32,000 nucleotides of DNA from the NCBI GenBank assembly GCA_963705375.1, contig OY970071.1:900001-932000 (forward strand). Direction: 5' to 3'. Below the pieces are notes generated by a model. It saw nothing but the letters and a program-made list of their open reading frames with translations. It was not told where the DNA came from and searched no databases. The position numbers and the translations under genes were made by a program. The first letter of the stretch is position 1. Each line of letters opens with the position of its first letter. Source of the stretch: Candidatus Saccharimonadota bacterium (GTDB taxonomy: Archaea > Micrarchaeota > Micrarchaeia > Micrarchaeales > Micrarchaeaceae). This document shows, one piece after another, positions 8,645-23,622 of this stretch.

Positions 8645-8648
8645 TCTT

Positions 8649-8735
8649 GCGGGGGTGGCAGAGCTAGGCCAAATGCGCAGGATTGAGGTTCCTGTGTCTT
8701 TAGAGACTACGTGAGTTCAAATCTCACCCCCCGCA
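8649..8735 (+). tRNA. tRNA-Leu(GAG), class II with long variable arm, CCA not encoded
   Basis: Hand-folded cloverleaf. The acceptor is GCGGGGG/CCCCCGC with discriminator A. The D stem is GCA/TGC with a 13-nt loop. The anticodon stem is CAGGA/TCCTG with loop TTGAGGT, anticodon GAG at 8685-8687. The variable arm has a GTCT/AGAC stem. The T arm is GTGAG-TTCAAAT-CTCAC. Confidence 0.92.
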
Positions 8736-8745
8736 TATGTTTGCT
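8728..8745. repeat. Left copy of 18-bp direct repeat (target-site duplication / attL), overlapping the last 8 nt of tRNA-Leu
   Basis: cccccgcatatgtttgct at 8728-8745 is identical to 23605-23622. The first five C could instead belong to the right TIR as the complement of the left-terminal GGGGG, which would leave a 13-bp TSD gcatatgtttgct. Confidence 0.9.
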
Positions 8746-8856
8746 GGGGGTTATATTAAACGCTCCATTTCACCCACTTTTGGGCGGTTATCCGTTCCAT
8801 TTCACCCACTTTTGCCGATTATCCTTTCCATTTCAATCAGCTAGACAGGACGAGGG
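8746..8856. repeat. Left terminal inverted repeat (~111 bp) with three subterminal TCCATTTCA units
   Basis: The left end gggggTTATATTAAAcgCTCCATTTCA ... TTTCAATCaGCTAGACAGGACGAGGG aligns with the reverse complement of 23529-23609. TCCATTTCA starts at 8764, 8796 and 8827, a period of 31-32 nt. Confidence 0.88.
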
Positions 8857-8905
8857 AAATATCTGGGTCAAGAGAGGTTTATATGCGGAGTTGAAAAGCC
8901 TGTGA

Positions 8906-9574
8906 CTATCTTCTCCTCTTTGCATTGTAACCTACAATTGCGTTATCAATAAGTTTGGCAACAGATGGTTGGAACTGTTCCGTCTCAAAATGGCTTTTAC
9001 CAAGTTTTAACCGCTGGCTGATTTCTACAAACATCTTAAACAGCTCAGCAAAAACCGTCTCTTCATTTTTAGGCGTCAAGTGCTTTTTAAAGAATGGTAA
9101 AGTATACTCTCTATCTATCGGGACAACTAGTTCAGGAAGGATAAAATGCAAAGTCTTGGAAGTGCCTACTATCTTTGAATCAGTTTTCATTATCTTTAAT
9201 TTGTGAAATATTGTTTGGAGAACTTTTTGAGTTTGATTCATCTGGTCCGGTTGCAATCTTTCTAAGGCTAGTCCATCCAAATTTAGTAGTTCACTTCTGC
9301 AACTATGGATACTCTCCTTGAAAGAGTCAAAATCTTGCATTTTTGCTCCGCGTTCACCCAGCCTGTGCATTCCCCACGAAGCCAGAGTCGCATAGGCGTA
9401 CTCATAGAAGTCTGGGTCATCTAGCACCTGCCTTAAAGATTTCCCATTATGACAACCAATTACTTTTGAATAGAAGTGCGTACTTGGCCCACTGAAATTT
9501 TTTATGCCTTGCTTTGCAAAATAATCAACGTTCTTGATAAGGTCAGCAATCCGTTCACCAACAACATCCCTCAT
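8906..9574 (-). CDS. Hypothetical protein (222 aa), casposon left-arm cargo
   Basis: Clean ORF, divergently transcribed from the wHTH gene. No motif could be assigned. Confidence 0.6.
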   Translation of the reverse strand: MRDVVGERIADLIKNVDYFAKQGIKNFSGPSTHFYSKVIGCHNGKSLRQVLDDPDFYEYAYATLASWGMHRLGERGAKMQDFDSFKESIHSCRSELLNLDGLALERLQPDQMNQTQKVLQTIFHKLKIMKTDSKIVGTSKTLHFILPELVVPIDREYTLPFFKKHLTPKNEETVFAELFKMFVEISQRLKLGKSHFETEQFQPSVAKLIDNAIVGYNAKRRR

Positions 9575-9671
9575 AGAGTGAATTTCGTGCTAATCTATTT
9601 AAGTGTATCTGAGTAAACCTTGAGTTTACTTTTAGATAACTAGAATATACGATTTTTCACATAAGTTTACC

Positions 9672-9935
9672 ATGGAAGATAAGAGGCTCGAACTTGTCCA
9701 CTTGGTAATGGAGCCGTACGTTTTAGATATGCTTCACGCCCTGGATAAACCGAAGAGATTCAGCGATCTCATTGCATATGTCAAAAACCGGAAGACTCTT
9801 TCGATAAAGTTGTCTAGGTTGCTCAAACATGAGCTTATCGAACATTTTCCACTGAAGGTTGAGAAGGGATATGCGAATTCCTACATAATCTCGAAGAAAG
9901 GAAGGAAACTTCTCAAAGGGCTTGAGAAAATTTAG
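9672..9935 (+). CDS. Small winged-helix (ArsR/HxlR-like) DNA-binding protein
   Basis: 87 aa. The pattern VLDMLHAL...KRFSDLIAYV...TLSIKLSRLLKHELIE...Y.IS.KGRKLL matches a wHTH topology. Confidence 0.65.
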   Translation: MEDKRLELVHLVMEPYVLDMLHALDKPKRFSDLIAYVKNRKTLSIKLSRLLKHELIEHFPLKVEKGYANSYIISKKGRKLLKGLEKI

Positions 9936-9951
9936 CAGTAGTATTCAAAGC

Positions 9952-10125
9952 TTAATCCCAAGGCAGTCTACACTTGTACAATATGCCTCCACAGCGAATA
10001 CAGATATGCTTGTGATTCTTGGGACCCACCGTAGTGATACAGTAATGAAAGTCGGTCTCTTTGCAAGTGCACTTCTTATCTGGTATCAAATTTTTATTTT
10101 TTATATACTCACCTTTTATCATCAT
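9952..10125 (-). CDS. Small zinc-ribbon protein (57 aa), translationally coupled to casposon PolB
   Basis: CxC ... CxxC cysteine pairs (KKCTCKE, ICIRCGG). Its ATG at 10125-10123 overlaps the PolB TGA stop (ATGA). The longer 78-aa form in the ORF track would overlap polB by 67 nt. Confidence 0.5.
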   Translation of the reverse strand: MMIKGEYIKNKNLIPDKKCTCKETDFHYCITTVGPKNHKHICIRCGGILYKCRLPWD

Positions 10126-12776
10126 AGTAAACCCAGCAGCTTTAGCGTCTTCCTCTTGAATTTTGGCACCTTGCCATCCTTCAGGCATCTTTTTATGTAA
10201 CTATACTGCCATCTTTTCATTCCTAGCTGTTTTGCCTCTTCTTTTGTAAGTGTTTCTATCCTTTTCATTAACTTCTGTTCGAGATTTTTGTCATAGTAGA
10301 CATAATCATCACTTTTTACACCAACAACTTCCGCTTCTTCCAAATTATTAGACTCCTTACCACAGTAATTGATATTACTAATATTGATGTGCCTAGGACT
10401 GAGAATCCCAATTCCTCCCTGTTGTTTCTTCTCTTCGTGATTTACGTACTCAAAAAACAACTCATCGGTTGGTTTCCAATAAGCTTCCGTGTGTTTATTG
10501 TAGAGTTTACCATTTTTGTAGTCAATAAATGGCTGATATTTTACTGTACTATAATCTTTTGTAAAAGGCAACATTGGTATAATTGGTTCTCTTGTTATGC
10601 TGTCAAGACGATAACTTACCCCTAGGGTTATAAAATTTCGTGGTTTGATCTGGTGCTTAAGATCTTTGGCTTTATTGATTCTATTAAAACGTTTCATTAA
10701 AAATGGAGATGTAATAGCTAATTGTCCTGCTACAATGAAATTGTTATAATTAAACTCTATGTAATTGTCTTTTACAAGGCCACTATTGTATTTTATAATA
10801 TCCATCCAAAACTTCTCTTCCCATCCCTCCGGCATAGACTTTATCCCTCCCAATCCATGACTTGAATGTTTGAATATTGTAATCTTTCCATTTTCTTGCT
10901 TGTATAAACAATATCTCTTAGAACTTATTCCTAGAAATAGAACATTATCTAGTAGTTCTCCGTTGTTGCCTCTTTCTACTTTGAACATTTCAACATCTTT
11001 ATTGTAAGGATTAAGTGGTTTAAAAAATGCCTGAACAGGTTTCACTGCAGAAGGACTTATGAAGATCGCATCACAATCTTCATAAAAATACGACCAGCTG
11101 TTCCTCTCAACAAATACCTCCGTCATCGTTAAGACGAGCCTAGCGCCTGATGTTAGTAGAGTTGACACTAGGGGGTTAAACATCTTGCCATAATGCTCTG
11201 TTTTCTTTACCTTTGCTTTAAAACTTTCGAGCCCATAAACAGTCACCTCAGCGGATTCTAATTTTGTTGAGGTCTCTATTCCCACCCCGTACAATGAGTT
11301 AGCCATTATCTTACAGACATGCTGCTCGGTTCTCAGTTGCTCGTTATTGGGATCTAATTTCAGTTTTTCCTTTACTTCTAGTCTATGCTCTATTAGTAAT
11401 TTTATAAAATCAGTAGTTCTTGGATCTACACAAAGGCCAAAAAGTTTGGTTGGTTTTAGCGTTGGTTGTAATCCTACAGGTAAGAATCTATATGCCTTAA
11501 TTATCTTGGGTGCTTTTCCAGTTTTGATCTTAGATGCAATTATGTCTGCATAGGTGTACCATAGTTGTTTACCGCTTAAGTAAGCCATCCCTATGTTATG
11601 TGTGATCTTTCCTCCAAAACGGCTTCTTATTGGGAAATAATCTTCATTTAACTCTACTAATCCAATTCCTTGTAAATTAGACCAGACATTTTTGTTTGTT
11701 AAATCTTCAAGCTTTATATCATCTACAAAGTTCTGAAACTTGTCATCTTCTTTGACATCAATGTGATCGGCGATGATATATGACCACAATTGTTGTGAAA
11801 TTAGCTGGCTTGGATACATCGATAAATAGTCAATATAAGTGGCGTTTACGGTTTGCTTGCGCACATGAACAGCGACCTTAGCCCCATAAAAACTACTTAA
11901 TACGAAACCCAACATTGACCTTGAAAACTCTTTATTTTGATCCAAAAACGAATGTATGCCCATAGAGGTGCAGTATGCCTTTAGCAGACTCGCGGTTGAC
12001 GACAACTTATGCGGATAAAGTGGAATATCGTAATCATTTATTTTTCCCAGTAGTGCCTTGAATAACAGGTAGGAAATGTTTACGTCGTTAATATTGTACG
12101 ATATCAGCTTGGAATTCACCACACCATAAGTCTCAATCTTCGATTTAAGAGGAACTCCAAAATGTCGGCACGCCGATTCGAGCGAATGAGACGCATTTGT
12201 AAGCACCCATGTCAACGTACGTAAATCGCAAAAACTTCCCGAATAATTATTTCTTGTTTTTCTATTTTTGGAATAAGGAGATACAAAATTGATAAAACTT
12301 CGCTTAGAGTCCAAACTCTTCAAAAAAATTCTTGGTTTATATTTGTCATTTGAAATTTTCAGTGAGAAGGCCTCTCTATCATGTTTTTTTGAAGTGCCCC
12401 AACTTAAGCAGACCCTACAAAGATCGAATCCAATGTTAAATCCGCATATCAGGGCACGTCTATAAAAGCCCCAAGTTATCAGTTTATCAGAAAATTCGTC
12501 CCTGTTCATTAGCGGTATCTTATGTTCGATGGCATATGATTTCAATATGGCATATTCGTTTGGTTTTAAGTCACCGTGGAATAATCCTTTCTCAATAAGA
12601 ACATCATTATTCCAAACTCCATAATATCCTATCAACAAGTTTTGGTACTCGTCTACCGAACTCTCAACATCAAAGCAAAACACAGTATTGTTATCGTAAT
12701 AATCCTCTCTATTATACTGATTATGTGTCTTGCCGTCATCGACGTAACATCTCAGTATGGCATTCGCATTTTCCAT
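10122..12776 (-). CDS. polB: Casposon family-B DNA polymerase (protein-primed-type PolB by context)
   Basis: 884 aa. Exo I is FCFDVES and Exo II is YNINDV. Motif A is YIDYLSMYPS, motif B is KIMANSLYGV, motif C is the variant YEDCDAIF, and KxY is SKRYCLY. It is highly divergent from the host PolB at 1415-3862. Confidence 0.9.
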   Translation of the reverse strand: MENANAILRCYVDDGKTHNQYNREDYYDNNTVFCFDVESSVDEYQNLLIGYYGVWNNDVLIEKGLFHGDLKPNEYAILKSYAIEHKIPLMNRDEFSDKLITWGFYRRALICGFNIGFDLCRVCLSWGTSKKHDREAFSLKISNDKYKPRIFLKSLDSKRSFINFVSPYSKNRKTRNNYSGSFCDLRTLTWVLTNASHSLESACRHFGVPLKSKIETYGVVNSKLISYNINDVNISYLLFKALLGKINDYDIPLYPHKLSSTASLLKAYCTSMGIHSFLDQNKEFSRSMLGFVLSSFYGAKVAVHVRKQTVNATYIDYLSMYPSQLISQQLWSYIIADHIDVKEDDKFQNFVDDIKLEDLTNKNVWSNLQGIGLVELNEDYFPIRSRFGGKITHNIGMAYLSGKQLWYTYADIIASKIKTGKAPKIIKAYRFLPVGLQPTLKPTKLFGLCVDPRTTDFIKLLIEHRLEVKEKLKLDPNNEQLRTEQHVCKIMANSLYGVGIETSTKLESAEVTVYGLESFKAKVKKTEHYGKMFNPLVSTLLTSGARLVLTMTEVFVERNSWSYFYEDCDAIFISPSAVKPVQAFFKPLNPYNKDVEMFKVERGNNGELLDNVLFLGISSKRYCLYKQENGKITIFKHSSHGLGGIKSMPEGWEEKFWMDIIKYNSGLVKDNYIEFNYNNFIVAGQLAITSPFLMKRFNRINKAKDLKHQIKPRNFITLGVSYRLDSITREPIIPMLPFTKDYSTVKYQPFIDYKNGKLYNKHTEAYWKPTDELFFEYVNHEEKKQQGGIGILSPRHINISNINYCGKESNNLEEAEVVGVKSDDYVYYDKNLEQKLMKRIETLTKEEAKQLGMKRWQYSYIKRCLKDGKVPKFKRKTLKLLGLL

Positions 12777-13054
12777 TACATCTCCTGATAACGTTTAATT
12801 GGGTTTGAGAGGGAGTCTGCAAGCAGACGATAGTCCCTAATCCCTGTCTTGAAGTGTTTCTCAATGAAAATCTCCTGTATGCCTTGAAGGATGAAGGAAC
12901 TCTTCAGATTTTCAGGGTTGTTTTTCGAGTTCCAGGCATCATTCCAAAGCAGCTGGCGTATGCTAATGTGGATATGGCAATCAACACAGAGGGTGACTGT
13001 GATCTCGGAGTTGCACCTGCCCGCGATGTGGTGATTCTCTAGTCGATGAAGCAT
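12776..13054 (-). CDS. HNH endonuclease
   Basis: 92 aa with ENHHIAGR ... TLCVDCH (HNH core with a Cys/His zinc site). Its TAA stop overlaps the PolB ATG by 1 nt (TAATG). Confidence 0.8.
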   Translation of the reverse strand: MLHRLENHHIAGRCNSEITVTLCVDCHIHISIRQLLWNDAWNSKNNPENLKSSFILQGIQEIFIEKHFKTGIRDYRLLADSLSNPIKRYQEM

Positions 13055-13209
13055 CTCTTATCCCTCTTTTTTGGATTTTTAGCGAAAATTCGCTTTACGT
13101 CCGCTATTGCCTTATTCACAATGTCTCTATCCAGCTGTTCTTTCTCAGCAGCCAGGAAGAATCTCTGGGTTACTTCAGTGAGCAGTTCCTCGTTCTTCTT
13201 GGATAGCAT
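13039..13209 (-). CDS. Small hypothetical protein (56 aa)
   Basis: The internal Met of track ORF 13039..13347 begins 5 nt after the stop of the upstream 198-aa gene. The charged helical sequence MLSKKNEELLTEVTQRFF... looks coding, whereas the 5' part of the longer ORF overlaps the neighbouring gene out of frame. Confidence 0.45.
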   Translation of the reverse strand: MLSKKNEELLTEVTQRFFLAAEKEQLDRDIVNKAIADVKRIFAKNPKKRDKRCFID

Positions 13210-13213
13210 GCTC

Positions 13214-13810
13214 TCACGTAGTCTCGTAGACAGAGTAAAATTCTGGTTGCTCGATACGTTCATACATGGCGACCAGCACTTTTGGATTGGTTTCAAAAGC
13301 ATGGAAATCGCCACTGCTATCAACCACCCCCTGCCCATTGTAGCCATTAAGCGGCCCTAGCTCGCCATTTTGAAGGTAGGCCCTTACCGCGTCATGGTAC
13401 TGTGCGAGCCTTGTAGCCTCCCTAGAATCGCTTAATTCAACAAACACGTCCTTGCCTAGCTCGTTAGTACGCATGTTCCTAAGCAGGTGATCGTGCTTCT
13501 TGGGCTTAATTCTATTATTTTTCTTATATAATGCGATAGAAATATGCTTGCGAACCGTACGTGGATCAATTTTTGAATTTTTGCAACAAAGTGTGTAAGA
13601 GTCACCGGCCCTCATCATCGCCAATACCCGATATGACTTGTCTCTCTGAACTTTCTGGGCTATTGACAGCTCGTGCAAGTGTTTAACGTAGAGCCTGAGT
13701 TTGCGTCTCCTGTGCTTAGCCCTAACTTTGGGCTTAAATCTTCTCAAGCGGGATTGGGGGCCTGAGCCCCCTCTCCTGACCTTATATGTCAAGGTCGCCA
13801 TCATCTTCAC
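13214..13810 (-). CDS. Hypothetical protein (198 aa) with a highly basic N-terminus, possible HTH
   Basis: Long ORF inside the minus-strand operon. Its Arg/Lys-rich N-terminal 45 aa suggest nucleic-acid binding. No family recognised. Confidence 0.6.
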   Translation of the reverse strand: MKMMATLTYKVRRGGSGPQSRLRRFKPKVRAKHRRRKLRLYVKHLHELSIAQKVQRDKSYRVLAMMRAGDSYTLCCKNSKIDPRTVRKHISIALYKKNNRIKPKKHDHLLRNMRTNELGKDVFVELSDSREATRLAQYHDAVRAYLQNGELGPLNGYNGQGVVDSSGDFHAFETNPKVLVAMYERIEQPEFYSVYETT

Positions 13811-14207
13811 TTTCCTTCGCGTACTTCCCTATGTTTTGGGATAGTACGGTCAGCACCGCCTCATTCTCACTGCAGCCTAGCTTCTCGGCCATCTTGGAGA
13901 TTTGCCCCTTCAGAGCGTCAGGTACGCGAACATATCCTGCCGTTGCCGTGCTCTTGGTCGTGTTATCCTTCCAGTCCATCACTGAGACTAGAAGAGGCAC
14001 GGGGGACCACAGAACTAATTGATACTTTAAGAGCACCTTCAACCTTCTGTATGCCTGCTCCTTTTCTTGTTCTGAGGCGTCCCAGGAACCATCTAAAAGC
14101 TGCAGATAGCTCTGGATCATGTCTGTTACCTGCTGACTGCCTTGACGTTGGCCAGTTTGGTCTGGCTTTACCCCGGATTGCTCCGGTTCTGTCTTTATTG
14201 GTTGCAT
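13782..14207 (-). CDS. Hypothetical protein (141 aa) with a C-terminal ribbon-helix-helix-like segment
   Basis: The C-terminal GYVRVPDALKGQISKMAEKLGCSENEAVLTVLSQNI resembles an RHH (CopG/Arc) beta-alpha-alpha unit. GGTGA lies 6 nt upstream of the ATG. It is the first gene of the operon that ends with polB and the zinc ribbon. Confidence 0.55.
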   Translation of the reverse strand: MQPIKTEPEQSGVKPDQTGQRQGSQQVTDMIQSYLQLLDGSWDASEQEKEQAYRRLKVLLKYQLVLWSPVPLLVSVMDWKDNTTKSTATAGYVRVPDALKGQISKMAEKLGCSENEAVLTVLSQNIGKYAKESEDDGDLDI

Positions 14208-14300
14208 TTTTTCACCGATATACTTATTAGAACCTACTAATTACCGTCGAAGTCCTCTCAGCGAAGCGATTCGTCGATATCACTACGCTGAAAGAAGTGG

Positions 14301-14310
14301 GTATTTAAAA
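14301..14310 (+). promoter_or_regulatory. Candidate TATA box for the 373-aa/591-aa gene pair
   Basis: gtatttaaaa lies about 22-31 nt upstream of the ATG at 14332, which would give a leaderless or near-leaderless archaeal transcript. Confidence 0.3.
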
Positions 14311-14331
14311 CTCTGGAAACAATACATATTC

Positions 14332-15453
14332 ATGAAAAAATACCTGCCTGACTGGCGAAGGAAGCGAGTAGAAGAAAATAAAATGAGGATACTGACTTTG
14401 TTTTTCGAACAATCTGAAGAAATTGGCACAGACGGGACAATGAAACTTAAACCACTATCAATGAAATGGAGCGACATTAAAAAATTAGCGCTGAAAGAAG
14501 GCATAAAAAGCGATTCTGGTCTTAGCAAAATTCTGTTTGCTTTAAAGAATGAGGGTAAACTTTTACATGATGAGCACCTGCAATGGAAACCTACGATTAT
14601 GGCTATAGAAGAGGCACAAAAGACCATTTGGTATATAGTCAAAACACTACAAGAGTTAAAAGCCAACGAAGCCTATTATTTGCATGGTGGAGATCCTTTT
14701 GGATCATTTAAATTCGGTTTCAGTACCGATAATATAATCGATTTTAGGTTGGATAATGCCGTTGCCAAAAACGCTGAGCTAATGTCCCCGAAAATCAACG
14801 TCATAACCGCCATGACTAAAAGCTTGCAGGATTATGCTTTTGACTTACTGATAGACAATATTAAAAATAATACCCTAAATGTCAACGATTTTAAGAGTGG
14901 CAAGACTATACAAGCCATAGAGATAGATTGGGATAAATTCAGGGAGGAATTTAAACGAATCCAACGCTTTATTGAGGACATCAATTCCCCAGACAACACT
15001 CAAGATGATGTACTTTCTGATCCCCTACTGAACTTGGATAGCCAAAGACGGGACATATTAAACAACTTATGGTTTCTTGTCTACTTCTCATCTAAGATTG
15101 GAGATGCCAAATTTAAAAGAAAACTAACATTTTTCTTGAATATATTCACACAAAGTGAAGATTTCTATGAAATCACTAAAGTAAGTTCCAAATCACTCGA
15201 AACGCTTATACGCTATCTAGGAACGAACAAGGATCCTTTGAAAGACCAAGCGCTGGTAAAAGACCTAATAGTACTGGATTCCACTGGATTTGGATATACG
15301 GACATTTCGGGTAGATACAGCATAGCGATGATGTTATCCAAGTTTGGTGACTCTTCATTTATGGAAAAGGTTGAGGAATTCGATAACAGACTAAGAGAAT
15401 TAAAAATCAAAAGGTTAAATGAGAAAATAGTAGCCTCAAAAACAGAGTCATAG
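14332..15453 (+). CDS. Hypothetical protein (373 aa), N-terminal wHTH-like segment, no catalytic motif seen
   Basis: Clean AT-rich ORF. The N-terminal RILTLFFEQ...LSKILFALKNEGKLL resembles a winged helix. A co-oriented ORF follows 38 nt downstream. Confidence 0.65.
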   Translation: MKKYLPDWRRKRVEENKMRILTLFFEQSEEIGTDGTMKLKPLSMKWSDIKKLALKEGIKSDSGLSKILFALKNEGKLLHDEHLQWKPTIMAIEEAQKTIWYIVKTLQELKANEAYYLHGGDPFGSFKFGFSTDNIIDFRLDNAVAKNAELMSPKINVITAMTKSLQDYAFDLLIDNIKNNTLNVNDFKSGKTIQAIEIDWDKFREEFKRIQRFIEDINSPDNTQDDVLSDPLLNLDSQRRDILNNLWFLVYFSSKIGDAKFKRKLTFFLNIFTQSEDFYEITKVSSKSLETLIRYLGTNKDPLKDQALVKDLIVLDSTGFGYTDISGRYSIAMMLSKFGDSSFMEKVEEFDNRLRELKIKRLNEKIVASKTES

Positions 15454-15491
15454 TTGAGTAACTCAGGGAAAACATAAAAATTGGTGATAGC

Positions 15492-17267
15492 GTGGAAGAT
15501 AAAAAGGAAGCAGCTGGTTGGCCATCTTCATATGACTTTTTCTATTATGATTCGAAGGTATTTGAAAAGGCCCTTTCCATTAGGAAAAAGGTATTGGAAA
15601 ATGCGAATTCAAACTTGATTTACGGATATATTTACTTGTTAGAGCTGCTGATTAGCGCAATAGCCCAACACGTAGAAGACCTTCCAAACAATATGCAAAA
15701 ATTTGAGATTATTCATTGGGGTAGGTTCGATTTAGGCAGCCGAGAAATGCAAGAAATCGCAAAGAATGATGAATATTTCAGATTGGTTCTTGTCTTGAAT
15801 AGAAGACGTAGAAACTTGTCTAACTTGCTGCATGCTCTGCTGGGAGCCGACAATCCAGATATAAGGAAGGGATTGGAAGTCTCTCTAGAAGCACTTGATG
15901 TTTTAATTAAGGAAATAAATTCCAAAGTGATAGAATTTTATAATCCCAAGAGAATAGGAGAAGTAGACGAAGTTAACGAGAGACTGATGATACTTAACTG
16001 GTTTCTCAACACCGTTTTATACGAAGGTCCTAGACCTTTCTTTAGCACAATGACTGATTCTATTGCTTTTAGTTACAGACCGCTCCCTCAGTATCTTGAC
16101 GGCTTTAAGTTTTGTTTGGAAGATATCTTAATTTGGTTAACTAGTAGTAAGAGTAATGAAACAATAGAAAGTAATCTCAAAGAATTTCAAACTTGGAAAG
16201 ATTCACATAGTTTCTGGGTAACTATGGTCGATGCATTCACTCGTGGCATTGAACTTAAACGACTTTTTGAGATAACGATTCCAGAAGAGCAATCCAAGAA
16301 TCTGATTGATGTTAAAAAAATAACTGATAAACATCAGCTAAATGTGCTTTTCAGAGGCAGAGGAATAAAGGCAATAACTGTTTTTGAAAATATTTTGGAA
16401 AGCGATAATGATGTGTTAGAAAGATTATTCACAGATGCATTGCAAGGAAATCTGCTTTTGAATGAACCCAAAGCTGAAATAATCGAGTTTAAGGAGTTGA
16501 AAAACTACAAAGAAGGATGGGGATGGGAGTATCACTATACTTATGCTTTATATGTTCCAATGCACGGATTTATTGGTGACGCCTCGAGTTGGCTGATCTT
16601 CCCTAGCTTGACAGTTGAAACGGACCAAGAGGACGATTATTTCAGAACAAACTTGCAAGACATTGTAAAAGATCATGAGGATGAGATACAATTTAGTGAA
16701 TATGAGATCAAAACAGGACTAATTGAGAGTTACATAGCTGAAAAGGATCGTGCAACAATTCGAAAATTGTGGGTTGAAAGAAGATTAGATTCTAGCAGGG
16801 GGTTGCTCGCTGAATTTTTAGCTTATTTCTATCTCTGGGATGGGTATGGCGCCAAACTCATTGAATTTCATAAAGAAGTGGACAGAACTGAAATTGATGT
16901 TGTTGGAGAAGATGACACTTCTCGTTATATCATACAGGCTAAAAATTCGCTCACCCTCAGAAAGGAAAAATTAGTAAAAGAGATAGAACAAATCACAAAA
17001 CAATTTGCAATAGTTGAGAAAAAGTATACTGTTTCAGATAAGTCTACAAGAAAAATACTTTTTGTGGTGGATTGGGCTTGGGATGCGGAAGATCCTGGTG
17101 AGGATCGTGACGAAAATGTTATAGAGGCATATGGAGTTGCTCAGCAAATGCTAGGAAAAGACAATATTCAGCTTGTTATCTACGCTGATATAAAGAATAT
17201 CGTGAGCCGTAGGCATAAGGATTTCGTTGAAAAATCAAACAGTGTATTTGATTTAATCGATAAATAG
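15492..17267 (+). CDS. Hypothetical protein (591 aa) with a C-terminal PD-(D/E)XK-like nuclease core
   Basis: GTG start. Residues ~436-500 (nt ~16797-16992) read LLAEFLAYF...EIDVVGEDDTSRYIIQAKNS, giving E441 ... D469 ... Q482-x-K484, the pattern of restriction-endonuclease-fold nucleases. The ~430-aa N-terminal region is unassigned. Confidence 0.6.
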   Translation: MEDKKEAAGWPSSYDFFYYDSKVFEKALSIRKKVLENANSNLIYGYIYLLELLISAIAQHVEDLPNNMQKFEIIHWGRFDLGSREMQEIAKNDEYFRLVLVLNRRRRNLSNLLHALLGADNPDIRKGLEVSLEALDVLIKEINSKVIEFYNPKRIGEVDEVNERLMILNWFLNTVLYEGPRPFFSTMTDSIAFSYRPLPQYLDGFKFCLEDILIWLTSSKSNETIESNLKEFQTWKDSHSFWVTMVDAFTRGIELKRLFEITIPEEQSKNLIDVKKITDKHQLNVLFRGRGIKAITVFENILESDNDVLERLFTDALQGNLLLNEPKAEIIEFKELKNYKEGWGWEYHYTYALYVPMHGFIGDASSWLIFPSLTVETDQEDDYFRTNLQDIVKDHEDEIQFSEYEIKTGLIESYIAEKDRATIRKLWVERRLDSSRGLLAEFLAYFYLWDGYGAKLIEFHKEVDRTEIDVVGEDDTSRYIIQAKNSLTLRKEKLVKEIEQITKQFAIVEKKYTVSDKSTRKILFVVDWAWDAEDPGEDRDENVIEAYGVAQQMLGKDNIQLVIYADIKNIVSRRHKDFVEKSNSVFDLIDK

Positions 17268-17315
17268 TAGCTTAAGGCAAGTTAACATAAAACTCTGATA
17301 AACTTCTTTTGTGCT

Positions 17316-19589
17316 TCATAATTCCTTTACCTTACTAAGTACTTCATCGACATTATCATTAGTGACCAAGAAGAAGTGTAATTTTCCATTACCCAAGTGT
17401 TCCCATTCTTTTGCCACTTGCACTTTATAGGTAGTGTCTTCGTTAGTGACTAGATGCTCCCCTTTCCACTCTAATACCAAGATGTTACCCTTTTCTGTAA
17501 CCGCAACGAAATCCGGATAAAATTTATTTGGTTTCCAACCCTGCAAGTAAAATGGATCTTTCTTCTCTCTGTTTCTTATCCAAAATCGGATATTAGATAG
17601 TGTATCTAAATCAAGTCTATTTATAAAGGTGTTTTCTTCTTTATTTAATTTGTCAATCTTCTTGTAATAATTTTTATTAAATTCTTGTGGCAACTCCTCT
17701 TCCAGCATTATCTTATCAGAGAACTTTTCAAATGACTTTGTTTTGATTTTGCCTTCTTTCACATATTTATCGAAATTATTTTTGGCATGGTTTACTAGTA
17801 TCTTATTTATTGCACTGTCTAGTTTGTCAAGAAGTAGATAACGATTAACAGACAAATCCTGAAGAGTGTACCCTTTTATATTATTTAAGGCCTTCTCCAA
17901 GAATGCTACCCTATCCTCTTTGTCAAGCATCGTAAATCTTAACCGTTTATCTAGCCATTGTATCAACTCGCTCTTAGAACAATTTTTATCCCGGTAAGTT
18001 ATTTTTAGCACTTTTTGTGCTCCTCTTATCCATTTGTCTCCTTCTTTTATATCGATGATTGCTCTTCCATCGCTGTCATAATGTACTTTAAAATCAATTT
18101 TGGCATCTTGCTTCGCCAATTCAAAATTTTCGCCTATTAATTCCTCAAAAGATAGTTCTTCATCTTCGTAAGCCATCATTGGAGGAGCAAAGTCTTCACT
18201 AACTCTTCTTTCAACCTCAAATTGATATTGCTCTTGTCTATCTGCTGCATTAATTAGATCAAGTCTACTATAGCCGTTGCTTTCTAATCCTGATATAATC
18301 TCTGTAGCGGCCTCATTAAAATTCTTAGCTGAGGCGAATATATAGCTCCGATTTAGATCTTCATTTTCTTTTCTCGAAGCAGAAGGCAATCTCATAATTC
18401 GTCCTATAATTTGTTCAACAGCAATTCTAGAGCCGATATTCGCAACAGAGATTAGGATATAAGCATAGGAACAATCCCATCCTTCAGCCAAAGCATTAAC
18501 TGTAATAATATACCTTATTTTGCATTTATTACCAAACAAATCAATATTTTCTAGGTCATTCTGTTTTGAGGTTTTAATTGCTATTTCTTCCTCTTTGACC
18601 ATACCATTGCATTCTTTTAGAAGAAATTCCTTGATCTTACCTACTGTCACTTTCTTTTCGCTTTCCTTCTCTTGTTCTGCCTGTAATAATGTGATTGGCC
18701 TTATGCGTTCCCCCTTCTCTTTTTTTGTTAATTTCTCTAATTCCTCCCGTCTTAATACGCCTTGCTTAATTGCATTTTGCCATTGCGTATGACTTTCTAA
18801 TACTAAAGGCAGCTTTACCATGTTTTCTTCTTTCAATTCAGAAGAACATATTCTCATTAAAACATTACTCTCTGATCTAGGCGTAGCAGTATACTCTATT
18901 ACAAAACTTGGATTTAGGCCTTTCAAAAACTCAATTGATAACAAAGTTTTAGCTCTATGACCTTCATCTATAACGATCAAGGGGTTGCTAAATCTAATCA
19001 CATTAGCCAGAGATTTTATTACTCCGGACTCGTCTTTTTCTAATATATTAGAATCTTCTATATTCTCAAAATGACCTAATAATTCGCCATTTTCTTTATA
19101 AACTTTATATTTATTCTGTAAGGCCTTTTCTTTTCTAAATGCATCTAGACTGGAAACTATAAGGCAAAGATTATTTTCTACGTCATCTTTTTTTATCCTT
19201 AAAGCTTCCTCGTTTGAAAATATTTTTATATTATTATCAAAAGACTCATCGAGTACTTTTCTGTGCATGTCATTCCTATCTTTGAACTTTTTTAATGTTT
19301 GACTTTTAATTGCCTCAGAAGGAACAAACCACATCACTATTCCTTTCCCCATTTTTTCTTTTAGAAAGGAGTCCATAATCTGGCATATAGAATGGCAGCC
19401 GACTAAGGTTTTCCCACCACCTGTTGGTATTTTTATACAAATAGAAGGAACATCGTCGCCAAAGAAATCGCTTTTATACGGTTGATTTGTTATATACATA
19501 TAAGCATACGCTGGTTTTTGTTTTTCTAACTCTTTAAGGAACTCATTAATTTTATCTAAGGCCTTTTGTTGATAAATTTTGAGCTTCAT
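17316..19589 (-). CDS. res: Type III restriction enzyme, Res subunit (SF2 helicase plus C-terminal PD-ExK nuclease)
   Basis: 757 aa. Motif I is PTGGGKT, motif II is VIDEGHR and motif III is TATP. The C-terminal YPDFVAV...VLEWKG is a PD...ExK nuclease motif. Its ATG abuts the mod stop (TAAATG). Confidence 0.88.
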   Translation of the reverse strand: MKLKIYQQKALDKINEFLKELEKQKPAYAYMYITNQPYKSDFFGDDVPSICIKIPTGGGKTLVGCHSICQIMDSFLKEKMGKGIVMWFVPSEAIKSQTLKKFKDRNDMHRKVLDESFDNNIKIFSNEEALRIKKDDVENNLCLIVSSLDAFRKEKALQNKYKVYKENGELLGHFENIEDSNILEKDESGVIKSLANVIRFSNPLIVIDEGHRAKTLLSIEFLKGLNPSFVIEYTATPRSESNVLMRICSSELKEENMVKLPLVLESHTQWQNAIKQGVLRREELEKLTKKEKGERIRPITLLQAEQEKESEKKVTVGKIKEFLLKECNGMVKEEEIAIKTSKQNDLENIDLFGNKCKIRYIITVNALAEGWDCSYAYILISVANIGSRIAVEQIIGRIMRLPSASRKENEDLNRSYIFASAKNFNEAATEIISGLESNGYSRLDLINAADRQEQYQFEVERRVSEDFAPPMMAYEDEELSFEELIGENFELAKQDAKIDFKVHYDSDGRAIIDIKEGDKWIRGAQKVLKITYRDKNCSKSELIQWLDKRLRFTMLDKEDRVAFLEKALNNIKGYTLQDLSVNRYLLLDKLDSAINKILVNHAKNNFDKYVKEGKIKTKSFEKFSDKIMLEEELPQEFNKNYYKKIDKLNKEENTFINRLDLDTLSNIRFWIRNREKKDPFYLQGWKPNKFYPDFVAVTEKGNILVLEWKGEHLVTNEDTTYKVQVAKEWEHLGNGKLHFFLVTNDNVDEVLSKVKEL

Positions 19590-21146
19590 TTAATACACCT
19601 TTACCTCATAAGGAATCTGTTTGAATTGAATTTTATACTTCTCTAATGTCTTCTCGTCGATTAGACATTTATCAGCGTAAATTACCCTCTTTTTACTGTC
19701 TTTTTGAAGTTTCTTTAAGAATTCCTTATTCAGTACATTCTTACCTCTTTCTTTGAAGATAAGATAATATTCGGTTTCATTATATTCACCAATGAAATTT
19801 CCTGACATCGTTCCTTTATCAATATTAGTATTAGTCTCGGTAAAGTAAATGTATGTCGCCAACTGATCAAATGAGCATTCTTCATCAATTTGACCGTATT
19901 CATTGAATAGCGGTTTATCTAATTCACAATATTCAAAACCATCTTTATAATCGTATTTTTTAATAGCTCTTTTAATTCTCTCTGCAGTAATATCTTTTGC
20001 AATGCCATCTTCAAGCTCAACTAAAATAAATTTCCTATGCCCACCATCTGCTTTGTTTAAATCTAATACAGCATTTCCAGTTGTGCCTGAACCGGCAAAA
20101 GAATCCAAAACAAGGTCTTCTTTATTTGAAGTGAGTTTAATTATTCTTTTTAATAATTCAACGGGTTTGGGTGTTGGGAAAGGATTAGCTTCCTCTGGAA
20201 ATAATACTTTTATTTCTCTTTTTGCATCTTGTGTGTGCCCAACCTCTTTATATTCCCAAAGAGTTAAAGGTGTAATTCCAGGACTTACTTCACTCAAAAA
20301 GAGTTTTGGACCCCACATGCTTGCTCCTTCCTTTCCAAACCATATTCGGTTATCTTTCTTCAGTTCCTCAAAACGTTTTTCACTATACAACCAACTTCTT
20401 CCTTTTGGTGGAAGTAATTTTCTTCCACTAGGAGTAACTATCTCATAAATATTTTTTTCGATTGCCGGACCTACAGAAGGATTGCCTAACTTCCATAGAC
20501 CGCGAGGATCGTTATCAGGATTTTTATAGTCTTTTAGCTGTTTTTCTGTCCTCTCAAGTTTATTTATTGAAAATGAATCTAAGTTCTTCGTATATGCTAC
20601 AATATAATCGTGATTCTGGGAAAAATATTTATTCAAACTTACAGGTGCATAAGCTCTTTGCCAGATTATAGTCGCTAGGAAATTCTTTTCTCCAAATATT
20701 TCATCCATGATTAAACGTAAATTATGCACTTCATTATCATCTATTGACACTAGAATCGCTCCGTCTTCTTTTAAAAGTTGGTACAGCAGTTTCAATCGTG
20801 GATACATCATGCACAGCCATTTGTCATGCCTACATAAATCTTCAGATTCATTTCCTACCACTTTTCCTAGCCATTTTTTAATTTTAGGTGAATTTACTTT
20901 ATCATTATAAACCCACCCATCATTTCCAGTGTTATATGGAGGATCTATATAGATGCATTTTACTTTTCCTTGATAATACGGCATCAGTGCTTTTAGTCCC
21001 TCTAAATTATCTCCATGAATAATTAGGTTCTGAGAATTTTCATCAACAGAAAGCGATTTTACTTTTTTTAACAGTCTAAAAGGAACCTCTTTGTCATGAT
21101 TTACAACGGCGTCTTTACCAATCCAGTCTAAAATAGGCATAAACAT
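19590..21146 (-). CDS. mod: Type III restriction-modification DNA methyltransferase, Mod subunit (beta-class N6A/N4C MTase)
   Basis: Motif IV IDPPYN lies near the N-terminus and motif I DSFAGSGTT about 280 aa later, the beta-class order. The N-terminal PILDWIGKD is typical. The start is ambiguous among 21152 TTG, 21149 GTG, and 21146 or 21140 ATG. Confidence 0.88.
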   Translation of the reverse strand: MFMPILDWIGKDAVVNHDKEVPFRLLKKVKSLSVDENSQNLIIHGDNLEGLKALMPYYQGKVKCIYIDPPYNTGNDGWVYNDKVNSPKIKKWLGKVVGNESEDLCRHDKWLCMMYPRLKLLYQLLKEDGAILVSIDDNEVHNLRLIMDEIFGEKNFLATIIWQRAYAPVSLNKYFSQNHDYIVAYTKNLDSFSINKLERTEKQLKDYKNPDNDPRGLWKLGNPSVGPAIEKNIYEIVTPSGRKLLPPKGRSWLYSEKRFEELKKDNRIWFGKEGASMWGPKLFLSEVSPGITPLTLWEYKEVGHTQDAKREIKVLFPEEANPFPTPKPVELLKRIIKLTSNKEDLVLDSFAGSGTTGNAVLDLNKADGGHRKFILVELEDGIAKDITAERIKRAIKKYDYKDGFEYCELDKPLFNEYGQIDEECSFDQLATYIYFTETNTNIDKGTMSGNFIGEYNETEYYLIFKERGKNVLNKEFLKKLQKDSKKRVIYADKCLIDEKTLEKYKIQFKQIPYEVKVY

Positions 21147-21162
21147 CACCAATTATATATTC

Positions 21163-22128
21163 TTATTCAAGTTGCCTTATGTATTTCGTTAAAACTTTTG
21201 AGAATATGCTCATTTTTTCAATTCCCCACTTTATAAGTTCTTCTTTTTCCGTTTCGCTAAGTTTTGTTATAGGACCACTTGTTTGTTTAGAAATCTCAAT
21301 ACGTGAGGCGCGTGCATCCGGTAGTTCCTGAAAATCTAGTCCAAATCCAAGTTCTTTTTCAATCACGTCATGCATTTGTTCCAGTTCTTTAAGGATTCTT
21401 TTATTTTCTTCTCTATCATGTACATCAATATAGAGTTCAATTGCAAAATGCCACCCATTAGCCATCCTAAATAGCCAAGAATAAGAGAATCCAGATTTTC
21501 CTGCACCGAATGAAAGCCAGTGTTGAGGCGACGCCTTTACCTTATTCCAAGAAGGATTCTGCTGCTTGTATTTATCAGCTAACTGTGTGAAGAATTCTAA
21601 TCTGACTTTCTGGAGTCTTTGCTCAGCCTCACTTAGCACTTCTTTAGATACCTCTTTCTGATACTCATTCGGTTTTACAACAACTACTAATTCAGGGGCG
21701 GGCAACGAATCCCCGATCTTCTTGACTTCTATTTTTATTCCAAACAGACTCGGCCCATCTTGCTTTATATTGTTATTGAGGTAATCTAGCGTCGCGATAT
21801 GTTCTTCTCTAAAGGTTTCTGCAATCCATATCCCTATTTTTGCCCCCTTACCTGACAGATAAGTTAAGAGTTTTCCTAAATGATCATGGTTTGTCTCACC
21901 ATATTGATTTTCTATAACAACCATGTCGTCCGTGCCTGCAATCTTCCCTACAAGATCTGCCGAATAATTTCCGACGTTAACTTCATTGCTTACATCTTCT
22001 ATATCTTCCCCGATTAATGCAGATATTTTAGAGATATTCTCTTTTACCCACGGAGTAAAATCTCTTTCTTCATTTGGCCAAACAGACTTTATGTCAATAT
22101 GTTCAATTTTTCCTAACTCCTTTGCCAT
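21163..22128 (-). CDS. PD-(D/E)XK-like nuclease N-domain fused to a DUF4268-like C-domain (by recollection of the family)
   Basis: The N-terminal ...YSADLVGKIAGTDDMVVIENQYGETNHDHLGKLLTYLSG is the signature I associate with DUF4268-family proteins found in R-M loci. The ATG at 22128 is preferred over the TTG at 22161. It lies immediately upstream of mod-res on the same strand. Confidence 0.6.
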   Translation of the reverse strand: MAKELGKIEHIDIKSVWPNEERDFTPWVKENISKISALIGEDIEDVSNEVNVGNYSADLVGKIAGTDDMVVIENQYGETNHDHLGKLLTYLSGKGAKIGIWIAETFREEHIATLDYLNNNIKQDGPSLFGIKIEVKKIGDSLPAPELVVVVKPNEYQKEVSKEVLSEAEQRLQKVRLEFFTQLADKYKQQNPSWNKVKASPQHWLSFGAGKSGFSYSWLFRMANGWHFAIELYIDVHDREENKRILKELEQMHDVIEKELGFGLDFQELPDARASRIEISKQTSGPITKLSETEKEELIKWGIEKMSIFSKVLTKYIRQLE

Positions 22129-22278
22129 ATACTTCCCCTTTCCTACAGTATCCACTAACAATAATTGAACATTAACTCTTTATAACTTCACCCAGAAATA
22201 GTCGGCCATTTGTATAGCGTTGCCATAGCGCATTTTGTGTACTTCTTTTATGCAAGTATAACTTATTATACCTTTATA

Positions 22279-23457: not shown

Positions 23458-23488
23458 GTTTTTCACCTGGTAGAATATCGACGTCAAA

Positions 23489-23500
23489 GTATATAAAAAG
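23489..23500 (-). promoter_or_regulatory. Candidate TATA box for cas1
   Basis: The minus strand reads ctttttatatac, 32-43 nt upstream of the cas1 ATG at 23457 and just inside the right TIR. Confidence 0.35.
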
Positions 23501-23528
23501 GTCCAAACAACGAGGATAGTCTAGTTTA

Positions 23529-23604
23529 CCCTCGTCCTGTCTAGCCGATTGAAATCGATCGGTTAATCAGGCAAAATCGATTGAAATGGAGGCTTTAATA
23601 TATA
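23529..23604. repeat. Right terminal inverted repeat (~76 bp, or 81 bp if CCCCC 23605-23609 is included) with two subterminal units
   Basis: The reverse complement reads TATATATTAAAgcCTCCATTTCAATCGATTTTGCC...GATTTCAATCgGCTAGACAGGACGAGGG, matching the left TIR. It is one ~32-bp unit shorter than the left TIR. Confidence 0.88.
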
Positions 23605-23622
23605 CCCCCGCATATGTTTGCT
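23605..23622. repeat. Right copy of the 18-bp direct repeat (TSD / attR)
   Basis: cccccgcatatgtttgct is identical to 8728-8745. Confidence 0.9.

Follow-up and report, generated by a model that had tools for sequence, protein, structure and literature searches.

A candidate single-gene PD-(D/E)XK defence nuclease carried as cargo by a family 2 casposon

The window, the whole 32,000-nucleotide stretch of DNA that was analysed, contains an intact family 2 casposon at positions 8728..23622 (no strand assigned), identified by its TIRs, TSD and gene content in comparison with published elements (PMC4046053, PMC4779613). The two 18-bp copies of the TSD, CCCCCGCATATGTTTGCT, were found at 8728-8745 and 23605-23622; the TSD overlaps the 3' end of tRNA-Leu (8648-8736) and includes a CGCA motif. 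Imperfect TIRs were located at ~8746-8859 and 23526-23604. The gene order of the element was PolB (10122-12776, divergent), HNH (an HNH-like CxxC/CxxH ORF, 12776-13054), an ORF of 102 aa, an HTH-like gene of 198 aa (13214-13810), an RHH-like gene of 141 aa (13782-14207), genes A and B, an R-M cassette and Cas1 (22279-23487, with Cas_Cas1 at residues 14-298 of 402 aa). All the hallmarks of family 2 were present: a Cas1 extended at its C-terminus, genes for PolB and HNH, TIRs, and a TSD located at the 3' end of a tRNA. The order described for this family, in MetFor-C1, MetPsy-C1, MetArv-C1 and AciBoo-C1, is PolB-HNH-(wHTH)-HTH-(RHH), followed by a protein with an N-terminal wHTH and then Cas1 (PMC4046053, PMC4779613).

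The type III R-M cassette (17316..22161, minus strand, identified with Pfam and PADLOC) is adjacent defence cargo and consists of res (17316-19589), mod (19590-21152) and a DUF4268 gene (21163-22161), all on the minus strand. The cassette is exchangeable: in its place, a sister casposon (L001) carried a different, unrelated type III pair, and the homology between the two elements broke at 17310 and 22153. The homology to the sister casposon was continuous from PolB to the stop codon of B, was lost in the gap between B and res, and came back beside cas1. A first-pass annotation of this DNA had placed A and B between the replication operon of a casposon and a type III R-M system, and this setting was borne out by the located Cas1, PolB, res, mod, TIRs and TSD.

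Both genes lie on the plus strand. Gene A (14332..15453, 373 aa) starts with ATG and gene B (15492..17267, 591 aa) starts with GTG; the gap between them is 38 nt, and 48 nt separate B from the convergent res. These ORFs, gaps and orientation, as well as the AT-richness, had been recorded in the first-pass annotation and agreed with the exact coordinates and the GC content, which was 0.365 for A and 0.364 for B compared to 0.47-0.48 in the host flanks. Against the orthologues in the sister casposon L001, A had a dN/dS of 0.159 and B one of 0.12; therefore, judged by this comparison, both ORFs are real genes. The dS of the A/B pair was 0.4-0.8 in comparison of the sister casposons, while that of PolB was 1.9.

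A predicted TATA-like box, TATTTAAAA, was read from the sequence at 14302..14310 (plus strand), 22-30 nt 5' of the ATG of A, a position that implies a leaderless or near-leaderless transcript. A Shine-Dalgarno-like sequence, GGTGA, was read at 15483..15487 (plus strand), 4 nt before the GTG of B, and the B start agreed with the 'ME..' N-termini of homologues. The TATA-like box before A and the GGTGA before B make co-transcription of the two genes plausible, and are consistent with translation of B from a shared A-B transcript.

The C-terminal part of protein B, residues 420-591 (16749..17264, plus strand), was delimited as a PD-(D/E)XK nuclease domain by model topology, profile comparison, Pfam, Foldseek and BFVD. 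Its motifs are AEFLAYF (residues 440-446), EIDVVGEDD (467-475) and IIQAKNS (480-486), with the predicted catalytic residues E441 (16812-16814), D469 (16896-16898), Q482 (16935-16937) and K484 (16941-16943), all on the plus strand. E441, D469 and K484 were invariant in 16 of 16 close relatives. Among 72 divergent relatives, at 14-46% identity, E441 was kept in 71, D469 in all 72 and Q or E at position 482 in 71; by this measure of conservation, the nuclease motif is far beyond chance. K484 was kept in 55 of the 72, with the canonical lysine missing in the other 17.

The AF2 model of B (pLDDT 82.7) and a further AF2 model (pLDDT 79.1) had an α-βββ-α-β-α-β core with E441 in α1, D469 in β2 and Q482-x-K484 in β3. 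In terms of residues, the core (AF2, pLDDT 80-92) was made of helix 420-452, strands 455-463, 466-473 and 477-487, helix 491-512 and strand 518-528; the model had further elements at 539-555 (helix) and 559-563 (strand). A profile of the C-terminal domain matched PDB entries 8bao (E=6.6e-4), 8z4i (1.9e-3), 1y88 (0.015) and 7bdv, which is Can2 (0.069), in hmmsearch, as well as UPF0102 3fov and 1xmx. In the profile alignment, E441, D469, Q482 and K484 fell on the D and ExK that are catalytic in nucleases of Card1/Can2 type.

The Pfam signals that recurred in the B family, all of them sub-threshold, were NERD, UPF0102, DUF4143, DUF234, Card1_endonuc, Mrr_cat and HSDR_N_2; all seven are PD-(D/E)XK families and no others recurred. 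Foldseek searches with the compact nuclease domain returned 3fov, XisH (2inb), CdiA-CT (4zqu), Card1 6xl1, N.BspD6I, BstEII and VRR_NUC. All of these matches are PD-(D/E)XK proteins, none of them significant singly (best E 0.01-0.07). In BFVD, viral models annotated 'Restriction endonuclease' matched B with probability 0.97-1.0. A PD-(D/E)XK fold for the C-terminus of B, as predicted from its sequence and models, is thus supported, and the same call in the first-pass annotation, with identical motif numbering, agrees with the conservation among 72 relatives, the AF2 core, the 8bao match and the Foldseek results. By profile, the closest relatives of the domain are the nuclease domains of Card1/Can2 type, at the level of the superfamily only.

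Two other domains precede the nuclease. The N-terminal domain (residues ~1-253, 15492..16250, plus strand) was all-helical in the AF2 secondary structure and was also delimited by conservation, with near-invariant P11-S-x-Y-D-x-x-Y-x-D20, G45-Y46 and W76-G77. No PDB relatives of this domain were found by sequence or by Foldseek; we presume it to be a regulatory or sensor domain. In at least five homologues a TetR_N HTH was fused to the N-terminus of B. The middle domain (residues ~290-410, 16359..16721, plus strand; AF2 model and conservation) is β-rich, an α-βββ-α-β arrangement with a β-meander, in which G319, Y351-A352, D/N363, S365, W367 and F370 were near-invariant. It was unrelated to the C-terminal domain by hhalign, and Foldseek gave no specific match to it.

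The B family comprises 16 close relatives and 106 clusters among 1.84 billion protein representatives. Since the Pfam, PADLOC, NCBIfam and PHROG models gave no match to B, the earlier observation that no known family was recognisable for it stands. By these sequence criteria, B founds a family of three-domain proteins that is rare and has no name.

The neighbourhoods of B homologues were examined in a sample of about ten loci, several of them from one habitat. In nine of ten independent loci, B was adjoined by an integrase, by R-M or other defence genes, or by both. The R-M systems beside B homologues varied in type (II, IIG and III), and the hosts included both archaea and bacteria. B moves horizontally between the two domains of life on integrative elements. 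A PADLOC scan of 57 neighbours bore out the defence context, so the R-M and mobile-element setting noted earlier for this one locus extends to the relatives of B. In two loci B was followed by a membrane HerA/AAA_22 ATPase, and therefore some members of the family may need a partner. The genes cas10, csm and cmr were absent from the ten neighbourhoods, where the sole nearby cas gene was the casposase.

Gene A showed a different picture. Its sole homologue among 5.8 billion proteins was P0017, with 78% identity. Residues 44-86 had a weak winged-helix signal (MCM_C wHTH, E=0.035 with the whole protein and 0.0086 with the N-terminal fragment, below the Pfam cut-off); beyond this segment, 250 aa carried no recognised domain, and no match to A was found in the PDB. 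The HEAT signal was not seen in Pfam at E<=5, and hhalign self-comparison detected no internal repeat. The position of A matches the family 2 order PolB-HNH-HTH-(RHH)-A-Cas1, as in MetFor-C1, MetPsy-C1 and MetArv-C1, and A sits in the arm that is colinear with PolB between the sister casposons.

The proteins described for this slot, Metfor_2018 and Mpsy_0185 ('wHTH (N-term), HEAT repeat (C-term)'), were compared with A by description (PMC4046053); A occupies their slot and has a weak N-terminal wHTH signal below the Pfam cut-off, but the HEAT signal was not detected in A. The original wHTH-HEAT assignments in family 2 casposons had relied on HHpred (PMC4046053), and the slot holds lineage-specific variants or C-termini, for example RCIX11 of MetArv-C1 (PMC4046053, PMC4779613). 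Published casposons have the wHTH gene directly next to cas1; in this element, A and cas1 are four cargo genes apart. It was proposed in the casposon literature that the N-terminal winged-helix protein aids Cas1 in end or target recognition. By position, A is most likely the lineage-specific 'N-terminal wHTH' DNA-binding protein of the family 2 casposon core, and not a partner of B.

From the neighbourhoods in about ten contexts, we infer that B is probably a single-gene defence nuclease. Our overall reading has in our estimate an even chance of being correct: the casposon carries B as cargo, a candidate defence nuclease that stands alone, while A belongs to the machinery of the element, and the two do not form one module. 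B would then be a nuclease for defence or exclusion that works as a single protein, in the manner of Upx, Shedu or the type IV restriction enzymes. Its N-terminal and middle domains would keep the nuclease inactive or target it until they sense a cue derived from the invader; proteins, DNA structures and modified bases are conceivable cues. After sensing, E441, D469, Q482 and K484 would cleave DNA in a reaction predicted to be metal-dependent. The TetR-HTH fusions at the N-terminus of some members argue for DNA as the bound substrate. The sensing and regulatory steps are conjectural, since neither the N-terminal nor the middle domain has an assignable fold. More tentatively, and with rather less than an even chance, B may represent a new single-gene immune family, shared by archaea and bacteria and spread by casposons in archaea, in which a novel sensor made of the helical domain (PSxYDxxYxD) and the β-domain (Y-A...D-x-S-x-W-x-x-F) gates a Card1-like nuclease.

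The first-pass annotation had seen in A and B a two-gene module, with A, as one may suppose, a DNA-binding sensor or regulator that controls or targets the nuclease of B. The two genes are co-oriented across the 38-nt gap, no separate promoter is obvious for B, which has a Shine-Dalgarno-like sequence, and the pair was kept, probably co-transcribed, in both known casposons with a dS below that of PolB; moreover, an HTH function recurs beside B in the form of the TetR_N fusions. Still, A was not found by phmmer at eight other independent B loci and was present only in the sister casposon (L001/L002), so that the co-occurrence proposed as a check was confined to this element and its sister. A conserved two-gene defence system was rejected on account of this absence, and by the refuting condition set in the first-pass annotation, a lack of co-occurrence elsewhere, the pair fails as a module. 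A also has one homologue anywhere and occupies a casposon core slot; no gene fusion connects it with B, and the N-terminal extensions found in variants of B are not related to it; the TetR HTH and the putative wHTH of A are not homologous. We therefore regard a true two-gene system as unlikely.

It is improbable as well that B is a modification-dependent restriction enzyme of type IV, or another restriction endonuclease that acts alone, with the aromatic residues of the middle domain reading a modified or flipped base and a Mrr/NERD-like domain cutting. Type IV enzymes typically adjoin R-M systems in immigration-control regions, and R-M systems of changing type regularly adjoin B. The near-invariance of Y351, W367 and F370, the sub-threshold Mrr_cat, NERD and HSDR_N_2 signals and the annotation of the top viral structural matches as restriction endonucleases point the same way. 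Against it, known modified-DNA reader folds (SRA, EVE, YTH, PUA, Mrr_N) were not found in B by Foldseek or Pfam, and Mrr_cat, seen in 3 of 72 relatives, never reached the threshold. Distinctly less probable still is that B serves the mobile elements rather than host defence, as a nuclease of recombination, processing, addiction or competition between elements. B was in every case part of an integrative element or next to one (casposons, integrase islands), it lies in the PolB-colinear arm outside the swapped R-M cassette, and its pairing with a membrane HerA/TraG-like ATPase in two loci recalls DNA-transfer machinery; assorted nucleases thought to process the ends are known to be carried by casposons (PMC4046053). 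However, Cas1 casposons and tyrosine-integrase islands differ, which leaves no one mechanism of transposition that could require B; the gene is missing from most casposons, and its neighbours are overwhelmingly defence genes.

Among characterised nucleases, those of Card1/Can2/DUF1887 type (6xl1, 7bdv, 8bao, 8z4i, 1xmx) matched the C-terminal domain with profile E=6.6e-4 to 0.8. Card1 6xl1 also had a Foldseek probability of 0.92 to B, the Card1_endonuc Pfam match was sub-threshold, and the D...(E/Q)xK arrangement is common to both. Card1 and Can2, however, have a CARF domain, while the N-terminus of B is all-helical with no CARF Pfam match; they are cA4-activated ancillary nucleases of type III CRISPR, while the ten B neighbourhoods are without type III CRISPR genes. 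B was therefore rejected as a CARF nuclease, for want of both a CARF domain and an association with type III CRISPR-Cas. The Mrr, NERD, UPF0102 (YraN) and AF1548-type proteins are similar to B in the sub-threshold Pfam signals, in the 1y88 and 3fov matches, seen by profile and by Foldseek, and as solitary genes beside R-M systems. Unlike the Mrr/NERD-type proteins, type IV enzymes included, B never exceeded the family thresholds, and no Mrr_N or known modification-reader domain was detected in it.

In architecture, B resembles two single-gene systems. In Shedu (SduA, DUF4263/PF14082), a single defence-island gene likewise encodes a sensing region, variable and N-terminal, and a PD-(D/E)XK nuclease at the C-terminus. 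DUF4263/Shedu gave no match in B (Pfam and PADLOC, E<=1) or in the 72 relatives. The analogy to Shedu/DUF4263 drawn in the first-pass annotation thus holds for the architecture and not for homology, the nearest domains being of Card1/Can2 type. Upx, a defence-island gene, codes for a single 1272-aa protein that ends in a PD-(D/E)XK core, with the D on strand β2 and the ExK on strand β3, and whose nuclease is regulated by N-terminal and middle domains without recognisable relatives (PMC13099982). It is like B in being one polypeptide with the nuclease behind large relative-less domains, which is a functional analogy and not homology: the sequences did not match, B having no match to any PADLOC model at E<=1. 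Besides, the NTD of Upx contains another, cryptic nuclease and the protein has 1272 aa, whereas B has 591 aa and a middle domain that is not detectably nuclease-related.

The immediate impact of these results is modest, because the B family is rare and its defence role is a candidate one, drawn from context. If B is a defence nuclease, it would add a new family, with two regulatory domains of unassigned structure, to the single-protein PD-(D/E)XK immune effectors (Shedu, Upx, type IV enzymes), and would be among the few such candidates first found in archaea. The defence cargo block, made of B and the exchangeable type III R-M cassette, sits between the casposon core genes and cas1, and recombination breakpoints can be recognised. 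An intact family 2 casposon with this cargo supports the notion that casposons, from which the adaptation modules of CRISPR presumably descend, double as defence-island vehicles. Pipolins are comparable carriers of defence islands in bacteria. Should the reading of B as a new immune family be true, self-synthesising Cas1 transposons would be carriers of exchangeable defence islands.

For annotation, the locus suggests caution, as adjacent co-oriented genes on mobile elements need not form modules; to see the upstream ORFan A as part of the transposon machinery, evolving fast, explains it better than to see it as one component of a system.

The 591-aa protein B (15492-17267, plus strand, GTG start), encoded next to the 373-aa protein A (14332-15453, plus strand, ATG start), belongs to the PD-(D/E)XK superfamily and represents a new family in a known functional class, two of its domains being novel. 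The coordinates of both ORFs were as proposed in the first-pass annotation, which had also recognised no known family for either; the Pfam, PADLOC, PHROG and NCBIfam models produced no match to either A or B. Homologue searches among 5.8 billion proteins found 16 homologues of B, and a third search, with a 72-member family alignment as the query, returned the same 16 proteins and nothing further. An exhaustive profile search among 1.84 billion proteins extended the family to 106 cluster representatives, nearly all of them ~600 aa long and matching B from end to end.

We found the motif residues E441, D469, Q482 and K484 at nt 16812-16943, with the numbering assigned previously. E441, D469 and K484 were invariant across the 16 close relatives. 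In the alignment of 72 divergent members (14-46% identity), D469 was present in every sequence (72/72), E441 and Q/E482 in 71 each, and K484 in 55. The other 17 members, all of a distant branch, had E-x-S/T/Q replacing E-x-K while retaining E441 and D469; these members may be inactive or may have the lysine relocated. As judged from this conservation, the predicted active site of B is an intact, conserved PD-(D/E)XK one. We also observed that at least five members (P0009, P0011, P0012, P0014 and P0018) carried a TetR_N fusion, with the HTH preceding the conserved PSxYDYFY motif, and that the 993-aa member P0026 had a 363-aa N-terminal extension. We considered an A-B fusion as the origin of this extension and rejected it, as the extension crosses the membrane several times and shows no relationship to A.

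The AlphaFold2 model of B, built on the family alignment, was confident (pLDDT 82.7, pTM 0.67) and consisted of three parts: an all-helical N-terminal part (~1-250), a β-rich middle part, and a C-terminal part with the order α-βββ-α-β-α-β. The candidate catalytic residues occupied the canonical PD-(D/E)XK positions in the model: the first helix holds E441, β2 holds D469 and β3 holds Q482-x-K484. Comparison with the PDB sequences needed a profile of the isolated C-terminal domain, as the profile of full-length B gave nothing useful. The C-terminal profile matched DUF1887/Card1-like 8bao (E=6.6e-4), the CARF dual-activated nuclease 8z4i (1.9e-3), AF1548 1y88 (0.015) and Can2 7bdv (0.069), as well as UPF0102 3fov and VC1899 1xmx; the D and (Q/E)xK of the B family aligned with the catalytic D and ExK of the matched nucleases. 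In the Pfam scan of the 72 members, the sole recurring signals were PD-(D/E)XK families, every one of them below threshold (NERD, UPF0102, DUF4143, DUF234, Card1_endonuc, Mrr_cat and HSDR_N_2).

The Foldseek search of the PDB with full-length B was dominated by helical-bundle and GPCR matches, which we judged spurious. A second structure model, of residues 255-591, matched UPF0102, XisH, a CdiA-CT nuclease toxin and cA4-activated Card1, and further the nickase N.BspD6I, BstEII and VRR_NUC, with probabilities of 0.4-0.92 and no single significant E-value. Matches of B in a viral structure library were to 'restriction endonucleases', with probability up to 1.0. Since conservation, the AlphaFold2 model, the PDB profile, Pfam and Foldseek all agree, we take the nuclease fold as established despite the lack of a significant single Foldseek E-value; the C-terminus of B, as had been supposed from its motif, very probably has the PD-(D/E)XK fold.

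The N-terminal and middle domains had no relatives among the PDB sequences and no specific structural matches in Foldseek. Near-invariant residues of the middle domain (Y351-A352, D/N363, S365, W367 and F370) argue that this domain is functionally important. It shares the α-βββ-α-β topology with the C-terminal domain, which is a topological remark only; for a duplicated, degenerate nuclease domain, the profile comparison with the C-terminal domain offered no support (hhalign probability below 1%). The defining features of Shedu, Card1/Can2, NERD and Upx were tested for and not found in B, so it is a member of none of these families. It is probably not an Mrr-like enzyme either: Mrr_cat stayed below threshold, in 3 of the 72 members, and no known reader fold was detected. 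The earlier analogy with Shedu holds for the architecture only. The best experimentally characterised analogue of the arrangement proposed for B is Upx, by analogy and not by membership. In Upx, N-terminal and middle domains of no recognisable kind support a C-terminal PD-(D/E)XK core, and a phage protein lifts the autoinhibition (PMC13099982).

Ten genomic contexts of B, all from outside the distant branch, were read; the genome scan contributed one locus and the metagenome scan three, and no B homologue was found in scans of viral contigs, phages and plasmids. Type III R-M systems lie next to B in the casposon of the window and in a sister casposon of metagenomic origin (L001), and the two systems differ. 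Loci L003/L004 have a tyrosine integrase upstream and an ankyrin protein downstream, and L006 has an Nhi/AbiO/PDC-S41-like helicase, MazG and a HATPase_c_3 gene. The TetR-fused homologue in an Acidoferrum bacterium (L008) is accompanied by a membrane HerA/AAA_22 ATPase, then a ThaI-type R-M system and then an integrase. An integrase, an ATPase like that of L008, and Vsr, Dcm and a HaeII R-M system are present at L010-12. We also observed a HEPN-nucleotidyltransferase pair at L017, a TPR protein, an MmeI-like type IIG R-M system and an integrase at L018, a DpnI-like gene, a PDDEXK_1 gene and a type IIG R-M system at L019, and nothing informative at L009.

In a pooled PADLOC scan, the 57 neighbours matched 248 defence models, chiefly R-M components; R-M or other defence genes adjoin most loci, in line with the placement of B among defence genes in the first-pass annotation. 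Read together, these neighbourhoods establish B as a horizontally mobile, defence-island-associated gene of integrative elements, though carriers come repeatedly from the same few metagenomes and the ten contexts are therefore not fully independent samples. The recurring sources are L001, L009 and L012 (JGI sample 3300035696), and a number of ENA assemblies (ERZ2723/ERZ2725); the presence of archaeal and bacterial carriers in the same metagenomes is consistent with a recent horizontal spread inside a single habitat.

We rejected the idea that B has a universal partner. An ATPase of the HerA/AAA_22 type ('mad8-like') follows B in two lineages only and is missing from the window, and other loci have the ankyrin protein, the TPR protein or nothing. 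This ~600-aa ATPase is encoded directly after the B homologue (L008 10025-11926; L010/L012 9942-11756), and the bacterial and the archaeal-looking versions are 40% identical, both with N-terminal transmembrane helices, a HerA/AAA_22 core and a PADLOC mad8 match (~1e-11); it may act as a partner of B in particular lineages. The 603-aa TPR protein of L018 (3943-5754), directly downstream of the B homologue, ends in a PD-(D/E)XK-like motif of its own, EVDVLS...ILWEAKY. We rejected it as a B paralogue, since the B-family HMM missed it in spite of the D...EAK motif.

It is the association with defence genes that suggests a role of B in defence. B would act as a single-protein nuclease effector, whose N-terminal and middle domains would sense a cue or hold the nuclease back until activation; on activation, E441, D469, Q482 and K484 would coordinate a divalent metal and DNA would be cleaved. 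The TetR-type HTH fused N-terminally in at least five members argues that DNA is the substrate bound. The R-M type varies between loci, so none of these systems has B as a subunit. As a sub-case of the defence role, B could be a type IV-like modification-dependent enzyme, with the aromatic middle domain as the reader, which we consider unlikely. Quite improbable is a nuclease serving the mobile elements that carry it.

The reading of A and B as a genuine pair, which was the basis of the two-gene defence module proposed initially, is doubtful. A has exactly one homologue, with 78% identity, in the sister casposon, and a phmmer search with A over the other B loci found nothing A-like; outside the window, A thus stands beside B in the sister casposon only, and the module was not upheld. 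We favour, with moderate confidence, the assignment of A as the N-terminal-wHTH core protein of family 2 casposons, made from gene order and a weak wHTH match. The core set common to most of these casposons comprises five genes, for Cas1, PolB, HNH and two HTH proteins; in one HTH protein a wHTH lies at the N-terminus and a HEAT domain at the C-terminus (PMC4046053; PMC4779613). A HEAT signal was looked for in A and none was found. The published orders (supplementary gene tables; PMC4046053/PMC4779613) are PolB, HNH, wHTH, HTH, RHH, [wHTH-HEAT], Cas1 in MetFor-C1; PolB, HNH, HTH, x, [wHTH-HEAT], Cas1 in MetPsy-C1; PolB, HNH, HTH, [N-terminal wHTH, lineage-specific], Cas1 in MetArv-C1; and PolB, HNH, HTH, [wHTH], Cas1 in AciBoo-C1. 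In the window, PolB and HNH (92 aa) are followed by ORFs of 102, 198 and 141 aa, by A and B, by the R-M cassette and finally by Cas1; A therefore occupies the place that the core N-terminal-wHTH gene has in the published orders. The pair framing behind the original appeal of the locus is not borne out. The B family is rare; what is new and open to testing is the architecture of B and its carriage by a casposon.

Both genes are under purifying selection with respect to their L001 orthologues, with dN/dS values of 0.159 (A) and 0.12 (B). DNA homology between the two casposons is unbroken over 10109-17310, from PolB through 43 nt beyond the B stop codon, is absent over res-mod-DUF4268, and resumes at 22153 beside cas1 (breakpoints 17310 and 22153 in the window, 11819 and 16445 in L001). 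Protein identity is 97% for an RHH-like ORF, 89% for B, 78% for A, 70% for PolB and 52% for Cas1, and the res and mod proteins are essentially unrelated. This layout and these identities indicate that the R-M cassette is swapped cargo and that A and B belong to the PolB-sharing arm. The whole type III res-mod(-DUF4268) cassette has given way to a type III pair unrelated to it, with conserved sequence on either side, and the site looks like a cargo-exchange hotspot within the casposon. The dS values were 0.4-0.8 for A and B and 1.9 for PolB. Conservation between the casposons is a mosaic (RHH-like ORF at 13782-14207, minus strand, in the window and 8283-8621 in L001), which suggests that the RHH-A-B block recombined recently between diverged casposons.

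The casposon itself (~14.9 kb) is intact and precisely delimited. Its Cas1 gene (22279-23487), divergent PolB gene (10122-12776) with an HNH-like ORF beside it, long imperfect TIRs (~8746-8859 and 23526-23604) and TSD, an 18-bp direct repeat CCCCCGCATATGTTTGCT (8728-8745 and 23605-23622), confirm the casposon context. The TSD takes in the final bases of tRNA-Leu(GAG) (8648-8736) and a CGCA motif; insertion at the tRNA-Leu 3' end with a CGCA-bearing TSD has been described for family 2 casposons (PMC4779613). Archaeal genes flank the element, for RNA polymerase Rpb3, enzymes of the mevalonate pathway and a replicative PolB. The 38-nt gap separating A from B and the 48-nt gap from B to the convergent res were also confirmed, as was the AT-richness (GC 0.365 for A and B, 0.375 for the island, 0.47-0.48 for the host background).

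A TATA-like box ahead of A (14302-14310) and a GGTGA sequence ahead of the GTG of B (15483-15487) indicate that the two genes are probably co-transcribed. The sigma-70 promoter scan is uninformative here, as the host is archaeal, and a search of 13000-18000 for Rfam RNAs gave none. Attached to the type III R-M operon is a gene for a 332-aa DUF4268 protein (21163-22161, minus strand; PHROG 27742, E=6e-35), which is missing from the R-M cassette of L001. Overlapping small ORFs between HNH and A (13039-13347 and 13214-13810, both minus strand) have uncertain starts, and the 198-aa ORF has a counterpart of just 86 aa in L001. These overlapping ORFs, which no profile library recognises, probably encode the small wHTH and HTH core proteins of the casposon. 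An HTH-like segment is present in the 198-aa ORF, and the 141-aa ORF (minus strand) has an RHH-like C-terminus with weak Arc-repressor matches.
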